This document shows positions 117 to 7,101 of a stretch of 7,135 nucleotides of DNA, piece after piece (position 1 is the stretch's first letter; each line of letters opens with the position of its first letter). Position numbers and translations under genes: made by a program. The notes below the pieces were generated by a model. The model worked only from the letters and a program-made list of their open reading frames with translations, did not search any database and was not told the origin of the DNA. This DNA is from a virus (lineage: Duplodnaviria; Heunggongvirae; Uroviricota; Caudoviricetes). The stretch lies in IMG/VR virus record IMGVR_UViG_648276662_000018; one strand, 5' to 3'.

Positions 117-1289
117 TCAGTCCTTATGGTGGAAATAATCACTCAGCCGGGAAAACATGCTGCCTTCCCCGACAGATTCCAGGGTAACCAGCGGCCAGTG
201 CGCCACCTGTTTATCACGGTCGTAAAGTTCAATTTCCCCTACCCGCTGATGGGCGCTAATTGGCGCGGTGAGTTCTTTACCATCAAGGGTATATTTGGCT
301 TTGATATGTGGAATTTCGGCTTTCGGTAGCACCATCCAGAACTCTTGTTCCGTTCCCAGGGCGATATTTTCTTTATCGCCATACCAGATGCGTTCCGTAC
401 CAACCTTTTTCCCACGGTGCAAAATTTGCACCGTAGTAAAGTTTTGTTGACCCCAACGCAGTAATTTTCTTGCCTCTTCCTCACGACCTTTTGCGCTGTC
501 AGCCCCCATTACCACTGCAATGAGACGACGCTGCCCATCTACAGCCGAAGCAATGAGATTAAACCCGGCACCAGAAGTATGACCCGTTTTCAGGCCGTCA
601 ACATTCATGGTTTTATCCCACAATAACCCGTTACGGTTTTGCTGGGTGATACCGTTCCAGGTGAGGCTTTTCTCACTGTACATATGATAAAACTCGGGCT
701 CGCCGTGGATGATAGCGCGAGAAAGCACAGCTAAATCATAAGCCGAGCTATGCTGGCCAGGTGCATCCAGACCATGCACTGTTTCAAAATGCGTATCCTT
801 GAGATGCAGCTTCTCGGCATAGTTGTTCATCATTTCAACAAACTGCCGTTGCCCACCGGCAATATAGTCAGCCAGTGCAACACAAGCGTCATTTCCGGAA
901 TCCACAATTAAACCACGGCTTAAATCACGTACCGATACGCGATCGCCCTCTTTCAAAAACATCAGTGAAGAACCGACAAACACCGGATTATCTTTCGCCC
1001 ACGCATCACGCCCCACGGTGACAATATCGTCTGGCGTAATGCGATGACTATCGATAGCGCGATCCACGACATAGCCCGTCATCAGCTTTGTCAGGCTGGC
1101 GGGATTGCGCTGTTGATGCTCATTACCCGCGGTGAGAATCTGACCGGTGGTGTAATCCATCAATACCCAGGACCCGGCATGAATCTCTGGAGGTTGAGGT
1201 GAAAAAGGAATGTTTTCCGCCGCAAAACCAGACGATAAATTAAAAACGAACAAAGAAGCAGCAATAATAAGACGGCGTTTCAACAGCAA
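117..1289 (-). CDS. dacD: D-alanyl-D-alanine carboxypeptidase, penicillin-binding protein 6b (DacD)
   Basis: 390-aa ORF with N-terminal signal peptide (MLLKRRLIIAASLFVFNLSSGFA) and the three PBP active-site motifs SxxK (SLTK), SxN (SGN) and KTG (KTGHT). Sequence recognised as E. coli DacD. Apparent TTG start at 1287-1289 preceded by GAGGG; stop TGA at 117-119. Confidence 0.93.
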   Translation of the reverse strand: MLLKRRLIIAASLFVFNLSSGFAAENIPFSPQPPEIHAGSWVLMDYTTGQILTAGNEHQQRNPASLTKLMTGYVVDRAIDSHRITPDDIVTVGRDAWAKDNPVFVGSSLMFLKEGDRVSVRDLSRGLIVDSGNDACVALADYIAGGQRQFVEMMNNYAEKLHLKDTHFETVHGLDAPGQHSSAYDLAVLSRAIIHGEPEFYHMYSEKSLTWNGITQQNRNGLLWDKTMNVDGLKTGHTSGAGFNLIASAVDGQRRLIAVVMGADSAKGREEEARKLLRWGQQNFTTVQILHRGKKVGTERIWYGDKENIALGTEQEFWMVLPKAEIPHIKAKYTLDGKELTAPISAHQRVGEIELYDRDKQVAHWPLVTLESVGEGSMFSRLSDYFHHKD

Positions 1290-4862: not shown

Positions 4863-5786
4863 TTAAAGTTTAATTGAGTGGCACGCTCTATCACGTATCG
4901 CTGCGAATGAAGCTATCTCTTTAAGTGCCCAGCTTTGCTCAGCAATTAAATGGCGAAGTGCTTTTAGCTCGGCTCTTACTGCTGAAACGTCATACCCCGC
5001 TTTTGTCAGAATATCGATTAGTTTATACGCCGGACTGCATTCAACGAGTGCGCTGCGGTCAAGAGCAACAGTATCACCGCATTGCTGCCTGATAATGGCG
5101 TAAGGTGCATTTTCAGAAAACCATGAAATCGGGAAGTTAATATCCAGTTTTGGCGCTGGTAACTCTTCTTGCTTGCCAATGAACTCACCTTCAAGCGGAA
5201 CTCGAGCTGCAAGTGACAGTGCTTCGGTAAACTGCTCCTCACTGATTTCTTTATATGAACATCCAAAATGGGATTTCAGTGACGACCACATGGTGATCAT
5301 CGCCTTAGCCTGTTTTTCTTTTGGCAGAGACTGACCGCGACTCATGACGAGTTGTTTAATGGCTTCCTGCTGTTCAGTGGTAATTTTACCCGGCAACGCC
5401 TTTTTAGCTTTGCGTGGGTTAACTACATGACCTTTAGTCCAGTACTCGTAGAGCACATCGTCACACTCTTCCTGATACTGGATTACCTTGTCGCGGATTT
5501 CAGGGCGGACTTTGTTTGGCTGAATGCTTGAAAGCCAAGCCGCAAACTTACGAAAGGCAAGGCATATCATTAACTGTTTACCGCCAGCAGAAGGTATTTC
5601 GATTTCCGAAATACCTTTGACAAATCTCTGTTTTAATTTAACAAATTGAGCAGCCCAAACCATACCCATGCCTTCTACAACGGGTTTCATAGGAACGTAA
5701 GGTTCATTGTTAATGCTGACCAAAAAGAGATTTGTTCCGTGGAATGGAACGTTGATTGTATGTTCTGCAATTGCTACACTCGTCAT
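4863..5786 (-). CDS. ant: Phage antirepressor (Ant-like)
   Basis: 307-aa ORF immediately downstream of arc in the same orientation and upstream of the tailspike, matching P22 immI synteny and the size of P22 Ant (~300 aa). AGGAA about 9 nt upstream of ATG 5784-5786. Assignment rests on synteny and size, not on recalled sequence. Confidence 0.75.
   Translation of the reverse strand: MTSVAIAEHTINVPFHGTNLFLVSINNEPYVPMKPVVEGMGMVWAAQFVKLKQRFVKGISEIEIPSAGGKQLMICLAFRKFAAWLSSIQPNKVRPEIRDKVIQYQEECDDVLYEYWTKGHVVNPRKAKKALPGKITTEQQEAIKQLVMSRGQSLPKEKQAKAMITMWSSLKSHFGCSYKEISEEQFTEALSLAARVPLEGEFIGKQEELPAPKLDINFPISWFSENAPYAIIRQQCGDTVALDRSALVECSPAYKLIDILTKAGYDVSAVRAELKALRHLIAEQSWALKEIASFAAIRDRACHSIKL
5752..5780 (+). 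promoter_or_regulatory. Candidate promoter for a sar-like antisense RNA (within the first codons of ant, opposite strand)
   Basis: Plus strand: TTGATT (5752-5757), 17-bp spacer, TACACT (5775-5780). Predicted start ~5787, directly opposite the ant start codon and ribosome-binding site. Confidence 0.35.
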
Positions 5787-5858
5787 GTCGTTAATTCCTA
5801 TGCGTGGTTTTACGATACCGAAGCCCTGACTGTTCCCGCAGTTGGGGCTTCAACTTTC
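5787..5858 (+). ncRNA. Candidate sar-like small antisense RNA covering the ant ribosome-binding site
   Basis: Predicted ~70-nt plus-strand transcript ending at a 13-bp hairpin (5820-5832 paired with 5839-5851, 6-nt loop) followed by AACUUUCU. The stem contains two G-U wobble pairs that would be C-A mismatches on the minus-strand RNA, so the structure is favoured on the plus strand. P22 is known to make a ~68-nt antisense RNA (sar) at this position. Confidence 0.4.
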
Positions 5859-6053
5859 TGATCTATCAGTTATATCTTTCCCTTCATATACTTCACCTAT
5901 ATTGCTAATGCTGGCAGAACATCCAAGATGCTTGTATCTTATGATGTCCAACACGCAGTCACTACACAGCATCCGACCTGTTTCTTTAGAGTAAATGTAT
6001 GTTTGATCAGCGTCTGATTCGCTAATGCCGCAGAAACAACATTCTTTACTCAT
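5850..6053 (-). CDS. Small Cys-rich protein (putative zinc-ribbon), unknown function, inserted between arc and ant
   Basis: 67-aa ORF with CCxC near the N-terminus and CxxC about 21 residues later. Its ATG overlaps the arc stop as ATGA (6050-6053), indicating translational coupling; GAGGGGG lies ~9 nt upstream. P22 has no gene between arc and ant (as recalled). Confidence 0.6.
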   Translation of the reverse strand: MSKECCFCGISESDADQTYIYSKETGRMLCSDCVLDIIRYKHLGCSASISNIGEVYEGKDITDRSES

Positions 6054-6202
6054 ACCATTACCCCCTCTCTCTTCAAGCTGTCTATCAGGCGCTTGATAAC
6101 CTCTGAGTTAAACGACCTGCACTCTTCCTTTGCCCTGCTACCTATAGCATCCTTTAACGACTGCGGCATCCTTACCAAAATCTTACTTATTTCTTTCTCC
6201 AT
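6050..6202 (-). CDS. arc: Arc-like ribbon-helix-helix transcriptional repressor
   Basis: 50-aa product MEKEISKILVRMPQSLKDAIGSRAKEECRSFNSEVIKRLIDSLKREGVMV aligns with P22 Arc (R-P, GRSxNSE, KKEG pattern). Start set at ATG 6200-6202 with GGAGGG 6 nt upstream; the longer ORF beginning at 6238 has no ribosome-binding site. Confidence 0.85.
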   Translation of the reverse strand: MEKEISKILVRMPQSLKDAIGSRAKEECRSFNSEVIKRLIDSLKREGVMV

Positions 6203-6238
6203 GTTACCCTCCACACAAACAACTCTTTTCGAATACAA

Positions 6239-6267
6239 AAGATAGCAAAGTGAGTATATCTAGTCAA
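6239..6267 (-). promoter_or_regulatory. Candidate Pant-like promoter for the arc operon
   Basis: Minus strand: TTGACT (plus 6262-6267), 17-bp spacer, TATCTT (plus 6239-6244), about 40 nt upstream of the arc start. The -10 overlaps the left arm of the inverted repeat below. Confidence 0.45.
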
Positions 6268-6293
6268 AATTCTTTTGCATACACTTTGCTATC
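6241..6293. promoter_or_regulatory. Pair of 12-bp perfect inverted repeats (GATAGCAAAGTG ... CACTTTGCTATC) in the arc-mnt divergent control region; candidate Arc/Mnt operators
   Basis: Arms at 6241-6252 and 6282-6293 are exact reverse complements separated by 29 bp (centre-to-centre ~41 bp). They lie between the divergently transcribed arc (6202, minus) and mnt (6317, plus). Confidence 0.5.
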
Positions 6294-6316
6294 AAATTGA
6301 ATACCAAAGGTGTGAT

Positions 6317-6565
6317 ATGGCAAAGGGTGTGTCAATTTCTCCAACTACGGTAAGAATCCCTGAATCTTTACGCGAGGCTCTTGCTGTCAGAGCATCAAAA
6401 AATGGTCGCTCTGTTAACTCCGAGATCGTCATGATTTTGCAAGCCGCGATTGATGAAGATAGGTCGCCAAAGTCAGTTGAGTCATTTGCTCAGCAAGAAG
6501 CTGACAAATTCAAAGAGGCGCTGCTTGAGACGCTAAAGACCATGTATGGTAAGGATGAAAAATAA
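6317..6565 (+). CDS. mnt: Mnt-like ribbon-helix-helix repressor (maintenance of lysogeny)
   Basis: 82-aa product MAKGVSISPTTVRIPESLREALAVRASKNGRSVNSEIVMILQAAIDED... aligns with P22 Mnt (RxP, REAL, NGRSxNSE, C-terminal TLKxxYxK). Start ATG 6317-6319 with AAGGTG 4 nt upstream; the upstream in-frame extension from 6275 has no ribosome-binding site. Confidence 0.85.
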   Translation: MAKGVSISPTTVRIPESLREALAVRASKNGRSVNSEIVMILQAAIDEDRSPKSVESFAQQEADKFKEALLETLKTMYGKDEK

Positions 6566-7101
6566 TGCTGCACACAATTCATTTCTTATGCCCCGTTAAC
6601 ACTGCCACTGTTGGGCAACTTCAGAACCACTGTCTCACCGCATTATCTCAAGGCGCAACTGAATTAAATATCCATATATCAAGTCAGGGAGGGGAAACTG
6701 CCGCTGGCTTTACTGCGTATAACTTTCTTAAGTCACTCCCTGTTACCGTTAGAACTCACAACATAAGCAATGTTGAATCCATAGCTAATATCGTTTTCCT
6801 GGCTGGCTCAGAACGTTTCGCAAACCCATTATCAAGATTCCTGTTACATCCTCTATTATGGTGCTTTGCCTCCCCAGCCGCCGACCATGCCAGATTGAGA
6901 GAGTACGGGAAATGCCTCGATAACGATCTTGATCGCTTCGTTGAGACGTTCAATATCGACATCGGAACCCATATTAGGTGGGCATCCCTGATAGCAGACT
7001 CGACCATTTTGGATGCTAACAAGGCTCTTGAGCATGGCATAATTAATTCCATAAAAACTGCAAGGCTGGCATCCAATCAGGCAAACTGGTGGGTTGTTTG
7101 A
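6565..7101 (+). CDS. ClpP-family (peptidase S14-like) serine peptidase homolog, N-terminally truncated relative to ClpP; moron gene co-transcribed with mnt
   Basis: 178-aa ORF whose ATG overlaps the mnt stop (TAATG at 6563-6567), with AAGGAT ~9 nt upstream. By-eye alignment to E. coli ClpP: ISSQGGETAAG vs INSPGGVITAG; THNISNVESIANIVFLAG vs STICMGQAASMGAFLLTAG with the catalytic Ser aligned without gaps; RFANPLSRFLLHP vs RFCLPNSRVMIHQP with the catalytic His conserved; ALEHGIINSI vs AVEYGLVDSI. Confidence 0.8.
   Translation: MLHTIHFLCPVNTATVGQLQNHCLTALSQGATELNIHISSQGGETAAGFTAYNFLKSLPVTVRTHNISNVESIANIVFLAGSERFANPLSRFLLHPLLWCFASPAADHARLREYGKCLDNDLDRFVETFNIDIGTHIRWASLIADSTILDANKALEHGIINSIKTARLASNQANWWVV

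Follow-up and report, generated by a model that had tools for sequence, protein, structure and literature searches.

Two small repressor genes point away from each other in the 7,135-nt stretch of DNA analyzed here (the window), and the 114-bp region between them (6203-6316) holds two 12-base arms that are exact reverse complements of one another. What are these arms for, which of the two repressors would read them, and why are there two? The preliminary description had taken the segment for an arc-mnt divergent control region, and the gene content bore this out: both small proteins carry the Pfam Arc domain, Ant carries P22_AR_N, and Rfam recognized sar (Table 1). The two divergent ribbon-helix-helix genes encode a short Arc (~50 aa) and a longer Mnt (~82 aa, ATG at 6317-6319), an antirepressor gene lies downstream of arc together with the sar antisense RNA, and a Pant promoter was found with a candidate repressor site between its -35 and -10, the left arm being at the spacer/-10 junction. 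By BLASTP, the Arc-like protein is 39% identical to P22 Arc, and the Mnt-like protein is 36% identical to P22 Mnt across 74 residues, the C-terminal part included. Judged from these similarities, the segment belongs, as control region, to a P22-type immI module composed of arc-like, orf67, sar, ant, and mnt-like, and the module most likely represents a familiar circuit that has been rewired rather than an element of a novel kind.

The window lies at the end of a P22-like prophage. In the tailspike, an N-terminal head-binding region of the P22 type is joined to an unrelated C-terminal part, and about 690 bp from the tailspike stop lies an ORF (117-1289, minus strand), flanking the prophage end, that we take to be dacD. 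The start of the Clp-family gene lies 1 nt within the mnt stop codon (TAATG), and the gene is thus probably co-expressed with the maintenance repressor; its RefSeq annotation is ATP-dependent Clp protease proteolytic subunit. The 67-aa ORF between arc and ant, a slot that is empty in P22, gave no significant Pfam or PDB sequence match; a supposed likeness to the ClpX zinc finger was dropped, as neither database supported it. The same ORF was observed in CUS-3 and phiv205-1, and an unrelated 73-aa ORF in that slot in 611R6 and Emek. A 41-nt segment at 5817-5857 shows 97-100% identity with P22 as well as with many other phages and forms a conserved boundary sequence between mosaic flanks. The ant moron region is highly mosaic across P22-like phages, with ten types in sixteen genomes, and P22's is the only version that has been studied (Villafane et al. 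2008, PMC2629481). CUS-3 apparently lacks arc according to that 2008 comparison (PMC2629481); in its record (L255) we observed an unannotated arc-like ORF (MKVKTLRMP...) at 1768-1908 on the minus strand, which precedes ant, and a tandem pair of mnt genes at 2014-2543, one of them of the P22 type. No description of the operators of the present module variant was found in the literature, and a full-text search with the arm sequences returned unrelated primers only.

Table 1. Positions of genes, promoter elements, and candidate repressor sites in the window
Feature	Position	Strand	Remarks
Tailspike, 895 aa	1975-4662	-	
ant (antirepressor)	4863-5786	-	Cargo under Pant control; Pfam P22_AR_N, E 7e-40
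sar antisense RNA	5788-5855	+	Rfam RF00262, 84.6 bits vs gathering score 43
67-aa ORF	5850-6053	-	Two CxxC pairs; between arc and ant; 3' end overlaps sar
arc-like gene, 50 aa	6050-6202	-	Begins MEKEISKILVRMP; Pfam Arc PF03869, E 4e-12
Site L1, CAACTCTTTTCGAATAC	6220-6236		Candidate Mnt-like site at the P22 Omnt position, over the predicted Pant start
Pant-like promoter	6239-6267	-	-35 TTGACT (6267-6262), 17-nt spacer, -10 TATCTT (6244-6239), TG just upstream
Left arm (site L2), GATAGCAAAGTG	6241-6252	none	Exact 12-base match to the reverse complement of the right arm
Left-arm core 7-mer, CAAAGTG	6246-6252		
TATCTA	6257-6262	+	Corresponds in position to the P22 Pmnt -10 as annotated (TATCAT); lacks the conserved final T
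A/T-rich stretch, AAATTCTTTTGC(A)	6268-6279		Between Pant -35 and TACACT; no P22 counterpart
TACACT, candidate Pmnt -10	6280-6285	+	Invariant across all module types and P22
Right arm (site R1), CACTTTGCTATC	6282-6293	none	Starts 14 nt beyond Pant -35; overlaps TACACT
18-bp dyad, CACTTTG-CTAT-CAAATTG	6282-6299		Right arm plus second 7-mer (6293-6299), centers 11 bp apart
Site R2, GAATACCAAAGGTG	6299-6311	+	In the mnt leader; includes the mnt ribosome-binding site
mnt-like gene, 82 aa	6317-6565	+	C-terminal extension as in P22 Mnt; Pfam Arc, E 1e-10
Clp-protease-family gene, 178 aa	6565-7101	+	Pfam PF00574, E 2e-11

The repeat was located exactly where the preliminary description had put it. 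The arms are 100% complementary, the gap between them is 29 nt, and their centers are 41 bp apart. No further arm copy was found in the 7,135-nt window with 2 mismatches allowed, and the related phage phiv205-1, whose complete genome is 44.6 kb, has exact copies at the immI control locus only. When the 114-bp region was subjected to dinucleotide-preserving shuffling, an exact inverted repeat of at least 12 nt arose in 16 of 20,000 shuffles (P ~8e-4). A promoter scan of 5600-6700 returned the Pant-like promoter, collinear with P22 Pant (TTGACA-17-TATATT), as the sole sigma-70-like site. The left arm was confirmed to lie on the -10 of this promoter, sharing 6241-6244 with it together with the TG of the extended -10.

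The promoter of mnt was not located by the same scan, which detected no plus-strand promoter in 5600-6700. In P22, as taken from the GenBank X01916 and BK000583 annotation, Pmnt lies on the opposite strand to Pant (TTGAGA-17-TATCAT), with its annotated -10, TATCAT, abutting the Pant -35, and TACACT follows directly after the Pant -35, near Pmnt +1. The homologous positions in the window read TACAAA and TATCTA, a poor match, and TACACT sits 12 nt further out than the P22-type Pmnt -10 position. The TGC-A-TACACT motif TGCATACACT, which had been suggested as a possible Pmnt -10, is present but occupies 6276-6285, one base to the left of the position first given. A TGC-preceded TACACT, TGCTACACT (5772-5780), ends 8 nt upstream of the sar 5' end, where it makes a well-spaced extended -10 for sar; because it stops at this distance, TACACT would be usable as a -10 in this family. 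From its sequence, TACACT at 6280-6285 is therefore a plausible Pmnt -10. Between it and the Pant -35, the A/T-rich stretch is nearly invariant in types A-G of the module (AAA[AG]TT[CT]TTTTG; types described below) and, read from the Pant side, gives an A-tract immediately before the -35 that may act as an UP-like element.

Each arm contains one 7-mer of the self-complementary type CA[AC]-N-[GT]TG. Such 7-mers were close to expectation window-wide (11 versus 9.3), and three 7-mers of the form CAMNKTG fell within 54 bp (6246, 6282, and 6293), where ~0.07 were expected from the window-wide rate. Since the right arm has a partner half-site 11 bp away, it is predicted to be a self-contained dyad operator, and this partnership has the geometry of paired ribbon-helix-helix dimers, which supports the operator reading. 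The preliminary description makes no mention of this dyad. The commoner natural allele, with A at 6289, leaves the 18-bp dyad symmetric at 16 of 18 positions, and the type B dyad has the same layout (CACTGTG-ATAT-CAATGTG). Depending on the mnt promoter, the dyad would span -16 to +2 of the mnt start if TACACT is the -10, or +8 to +25 if the P22-type position is used. Arc and CopG share a mode in which one dimer binds each half of a 13-bp symmetric element (PMC2724298). The short quasi-palindromic cores CA[AC]-N-[GT]TG with a spacing of 10-12 or 21 bp are like those of the multi-site ribbon-helix-helix operators of CopG, MetJ, and omega, although the proteins here are of the Arc/Mnt subfamily and the repeats, as predicted sites, serve two divergent promoters. 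In all three of these systems, dimers occupy short repeats that follow one another at roughly one helical turn. Taking position and layout together, the two arms are most likely copies of a repressor-binding site, one for each of the back-to-back promoters, and it is highly probable that at least one of the two repressors uses them as operators.

Two further candidate sites flank the arms. L1 is centered 21 bp from the L2 core center. It is not dyad-symmetric in the window, nor palindromic in the E. coli loci, and is identical at 9 of 17 positions to a perfect 17-bp palindrome, GTATTCTATATGAATAC, found at the Omnt-equivalent offset in a Serratia marcescens relative (L206) in which the contact residues of Arc and Mnt are unchanged; of that palindrome the E. 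coli loci retain the right half alone (GAATAC). A 7-mer CA[AC]-N-GTG occurs at L1 in types C, D, E, and G. R2 has a degenerate core, CAAAGGTG, and repeats the GAATAC[A/C]AA of L1 (6231-6241), so that a second repeat class, GAATAC[A/C]AA, is present at L1 (6231) and R2 (6299), with GCATAC at 6277; only four GMATAC hexamers occur in the whole window, three of them at 6231, 6277, and 6299. Conservation of R2 need not mean protein binding, because the site overlaps the ribosome-binding site. Three other candidate elements were tried and rejected. TCTTTT-N7-AAAAGA (6224-6242), considered as an Omnt-like palindrome, is not kept in the Serratia relative; the 9-mer family ATAGCAAAG (at most 2 mismatches) showed no window-wide enrichment (29 versus 25.6 expected), its local cluster alone being notable; and the lambda-operator-like half-sites TATCACCG of types B/C and of L142 have inconsistent offsets and are not adjacent.

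How far does this arrangement follow that of P22? Common to both are the divergent arc-ant and mnt units, sar, ant, the Pant hexamers with their 17-nt spacing, a predicted repressor site in the Pant spacer (ATAG.A.AGTG homology), and an Omnt-position site over the Pant start, a candidate one in the window. In the P22 annotation, the 21-bp Oarc, ATAGTAGAGTGCTTCTATCAT, lies within the Pant spacer, and Omnt is centered on AGGTCCACCGTGGACCT over the Pant start. A MAFFT alignment sets the left arm against the promoter-proximal half of P22 Oarc, TATAGTAGAGTG and GATAGCAAAGTG being identical at 9 of 12 positions, and GTG at 6250-6252 is invariant in eight aligned control regions, P22 among them. The preliminary description had held that the operator layout differs from that of P22, and it does: P22 has one Oarc and one Omnt, whereas the window carries a second copy of the spacer site on the mnt side, within the 18-bp dyad, where P22 has no such site. 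Unlike P22, the window also lacks a 17-bp Omnt palindrome, its P22-type Pmnt -10 is degenerate, and it has ~12 additional A/T-rich bases past the Pant -35, in a control region that is ~24 nt longer overall. The proposed divergence of operator specificity was likewise upheld. The DNA-reading strands are SKILVRMP and SPTTVRIP, compared with PQFNLRWP and PHFNFRMP in P22, with reading residues K, L, and R in the Arc-like protein instead of the Q, N, and R of P22 Arc; the BLASTP alignments to P22 Arc and Mnt begin only after these N-terminal residues; and the TAGA/TCTA boxes of the P22 Arc operator (~9 bp apart, central G:C) are absent, their positions reading CAAA and TATA.

Relatives were collected by scans with both proteins and the central DNA block, which yielded ~50 close relatives (type A) and seven further module types. 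Of 5,426 complete E. coli genomes, 97-149 (~2-3%) carry the module, chromosomal in every case, and it occurs in three sequenced phages; carriers include phiv205-1, EC.P3, and S.Kent 1-2-1. When the 76-nt core was compared with phage records by blastn, it matched three type-A phages only. All types share the order arc ATG, L1, Pant -10, L2, Pant -35, A/T block, TACACT/R1, R2, and mnt ATG, and the reading strands of both repressors vary from type to type. The 12-mers at -21 to -10 and +14 to +25 from the Pant -35 were then taken from 12 control regions representing 8 module types. These fixed-offset 12-mers were complementary at 12, 11, 10, 9, 8, 8, 9, 10, 10, 9, 9, and 7 of 12 positions (~3 by chance), while the arm sequence itself varied from GATAGCAAAGTG in type A to GATATCACAGTG in types B and C and GCTACACAGTG in types D, E, and G. 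Because complementarity is kept while the sequence changes, the inverted repeat is a conserved architectural feature whose halves change together. Furthermore, the arm spacing is constant across all module types, the core offsets from the Pant -35 are -34/-35 (L1), -13 (L2), +23 (R1), +34, and +41 to +46, and the 55-nt block with both arms was the best-conserved segment in every pairwise comparison (82-96% identity, versus 58-80% for the flanking coding DNA).

Within type A, the repeat is perfect in 11 of 49 closely related loci and matches at 11 of 12 positions in the other 38, owing to A at 6289 (30 loci), T at 6245 (six), or C at 6251 (two). The perfect 12/12 match is thus a property of this window's allele. 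At the fifth arm position (6245 and 6289), the combinations were G/G in 11 loci plus 2 otherwise changed, G/T in 30, T/G in 6, and T/T in none, and the symmetric variable arm positions are among the most polymorphic of the control region. This variation is compatible with two protein sites that act independently and in which G/T at position 5 is either tolerated or serves for tuning; the toggle may adjust site strength.

Could the repeat instead be a nucleic acid structure or a by-product of the promoters? An RNA hairpin, for example in minus-strand read-through of the late operon with the stem followed by UUUUGUAUU, or a DNA cruciform has to be considered because folding predictions for either strand include the 12-bp stem (-17.1 kcal/mol, z -2.1, and -20.5 kcal/mol, z -3.7), with a U-rich run after it on the minus strand. 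The stem is A/U-rich, though, with a loop of 28-29 nt, and all three variable positions (6245, 6251, and 6289) break its pairing, without a single compensating arm change in the 49 type-A loci. Such uncompensated changes argue against a hairpin role of RNA or DNA; moreover, the central bases of the cores in types B-G never pair between the arms, and the cores are self-complementary, which is of no use to an inter-arm stem. The RNA hairpin or terminator, which folds on paper, was accordingly rejected, and we regard this class of explanation as scarcely credible. Hardly better is the idea that two divergent promoters happen to use the same extended -10 (TG-C-TATC), or that the repeat is accidental. 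The left arm does read as the Pant extended -10 on the minus strand (TGCTATCTT) and the right arm as TGCTATCAA on the plus strand, but this would account for just 6 of the 12 arm bases, and in no type does the right-hand hexamer (TATCAA, TATCAC, TAGCAA, or TAGTTA) end in the near-invariant T, for which reason duplicated extended -10 elements were discarded; chance is made unlikely by the shuffling result and by conservation across types. Altogether this possibility seems very remote. The third structural proposal, made in the preliminary description, was a looping arrangement, in which one tetramer or two cooperating tetramers would bridge the arms and loop out the 29 bp including the Pant -35. 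P22 Mnt is a tetramer, the Mnt-like C-terminal region is conserved here, and the spacing is fixed across module types. The claimed distance of about four helical turns holds for the 12-mer centers (41 bp, ~3.9 turns) but not for the core dyad centers (6249 and 6285), which in types A, B, and E are 36 bp or ~3.4 turns apart and hence out of phase, on opposite faces. A loop of 29-41 bp would also be very tight, and the right arm, with its partner 11 bp away, is predicted to be a complete operator by itself. With the core dyads out of phase and each arm on its own promoter side, looping is neither needed nor favored, and we consider it improbable.

Returning to the operator reading, we propose that both arms would be copies of the DNA sequence read by one ribbon-helix-helix repressor of the immI switch. 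Occupation of the left copy, on the Pant -10 and spacer, would turn off arc-orf67-ant transcription, and occupation of the right copy, which with the 7-mer at 6293-6299 forms the 18-bp dyad over the mnt start region, would turn off mnt. From one operator, P22 Arc represses Pant as well as Pmnt (PMC2724298). A single Arc operator suffices in P22 because Pant and Pmnt overlap back to back; a second copy would be needed here because the ~12 A/T-rich bases at 6268-6279 separate the mnt side from the Pant core. The arms would then be bound by the Arc-like protein, as the counterpart of the P22 repressor that shuts both promoters, with the Mnt-like protein on the flanking L1 and R2. We infer the identity of the binding protein, the position of the mnt start, and the repressive outcome from these comparisons, and give about an even chance that the arms are paired operators for the Arc-like protein, one per promoter.

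Several sequence relationships speak for the Arc assignment. The left arm is homologous in position and sequence to P22 Oarc. Types A and B have almost equal Arc heads and arms alike at 10 of 12 positions, and where their Mnt heads differ, L1 (51% identity) and R2 (62%) diverge. The two repeat classes, the arms and GAATAC[A/C]AA, would match two proteins with different reading strands. The competing assignment makes the arms sites of the Mnt-like tetramer, with the left arm repressing Pant and thereby keeping lysogeny, the right arm serving mnt autoregulation, and the Arc-like protein acting elsewhere or overlapping. Its support, which is at the same time evidence against Arc, comes partly from the cores: in types B-H these read CAC-N-GTG, resembling the center of the experimentally defined P22 Omnt, which itself matches at -38, and the Mnt heads of B-H retain the P22 pattern R-D-x-x-x-x-x-x-R, whereas type A alone combines CAA-A-GTG in both arms with a distinct Mnt head (SISPTTVRIP) while its Arc head matches that of B. 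In addition, types C and C2 have the same arms despite different Arc heads, and in D, E, G, and H one head is common to both proteins and one motif to all sites. C2 is the only module found to pair a type-A/B Arc head with a type-C Mnt, but it is weakened as evidence on the arm binder because the mnt of L222, a metagenome contig and the one C2 locus translated, reads as frameshifted after ~30 codons. Recombinants separating Arc from Mnt were sought in viral, genome, and metagenome scans and by phage tblastn, which returned types A-H and C2 only. An assignment to Mnt further demands that Mnt took over the Arc-operator slot of P22, leaves the Arc-like protein without an identifiable site, and is at odds with the A/B comparison, where very different Mnt heads go with arms differing at 1-2 of 12 positions and with strongly differing L1 and R2. 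Also, with equal sites on Pant and the mnt promoter, there would be a limit to how tightly Mnt could repress Pant. We therefore hold it to be possible but doubtful. As for the placement of the Mnt-like protein at L1 and R2, the lack of a palindrome at L1 in the E. coli loci and the ribosome-binding site within R2 count against this part of the Arc scheme.

Near-identical N-terminal reading strands of Arc and Mnt were observed in L043-L050, L005 (PhiR12 phages), L042, L210 (Tatumella), and L208/L209 (Xenorhabdus), with VRDIAPLGIRIP and ARDISPLGIRIP as examples of shared heads. The motif CTACA[CG]-N-GTG is common to the four operator-like sites of types D, E, and G, and the Xenorhabdus loci have the same GCTACAC/GTGTAG half-site. 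By analogy, the shared-head modules may be regarded as a natural counterpart of the laboratory head-swap experiments with Arc and Mnt. A broader reading, which we put forward only tentatively, is that the immI family may form a natural series, with Arc and Mnt heads and operators swapped and readjusted time and again inside a single fixed promoter frame, types D, E, G, and H using one head and motif at four sites and type A two heads and two repeat classes. A K/L/R or P/T/R ribbon would then read in the arms a novel target sequence, GATA[G/T]CAA-A-GTG, with arm position 5 as a possible affinity dial.

The control region points to no new mechanism, and the diversity of the ant moron was already known. 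P22 Arc and Mnt are textbook models of beta-ribbon DNA recognition, and mapped operators are limited to those of P22. The window and its relatives add several natural head/operator pairs in one alignable frame, so that the recognition code of ribbon-helix-helix proteins and the logic of a bidirectional switch with two repressors become testable. As the module resides in ~2-3% of complete E. coli genomes, it bears on prophage immunity and on antirepressor-mediated cross-induction.
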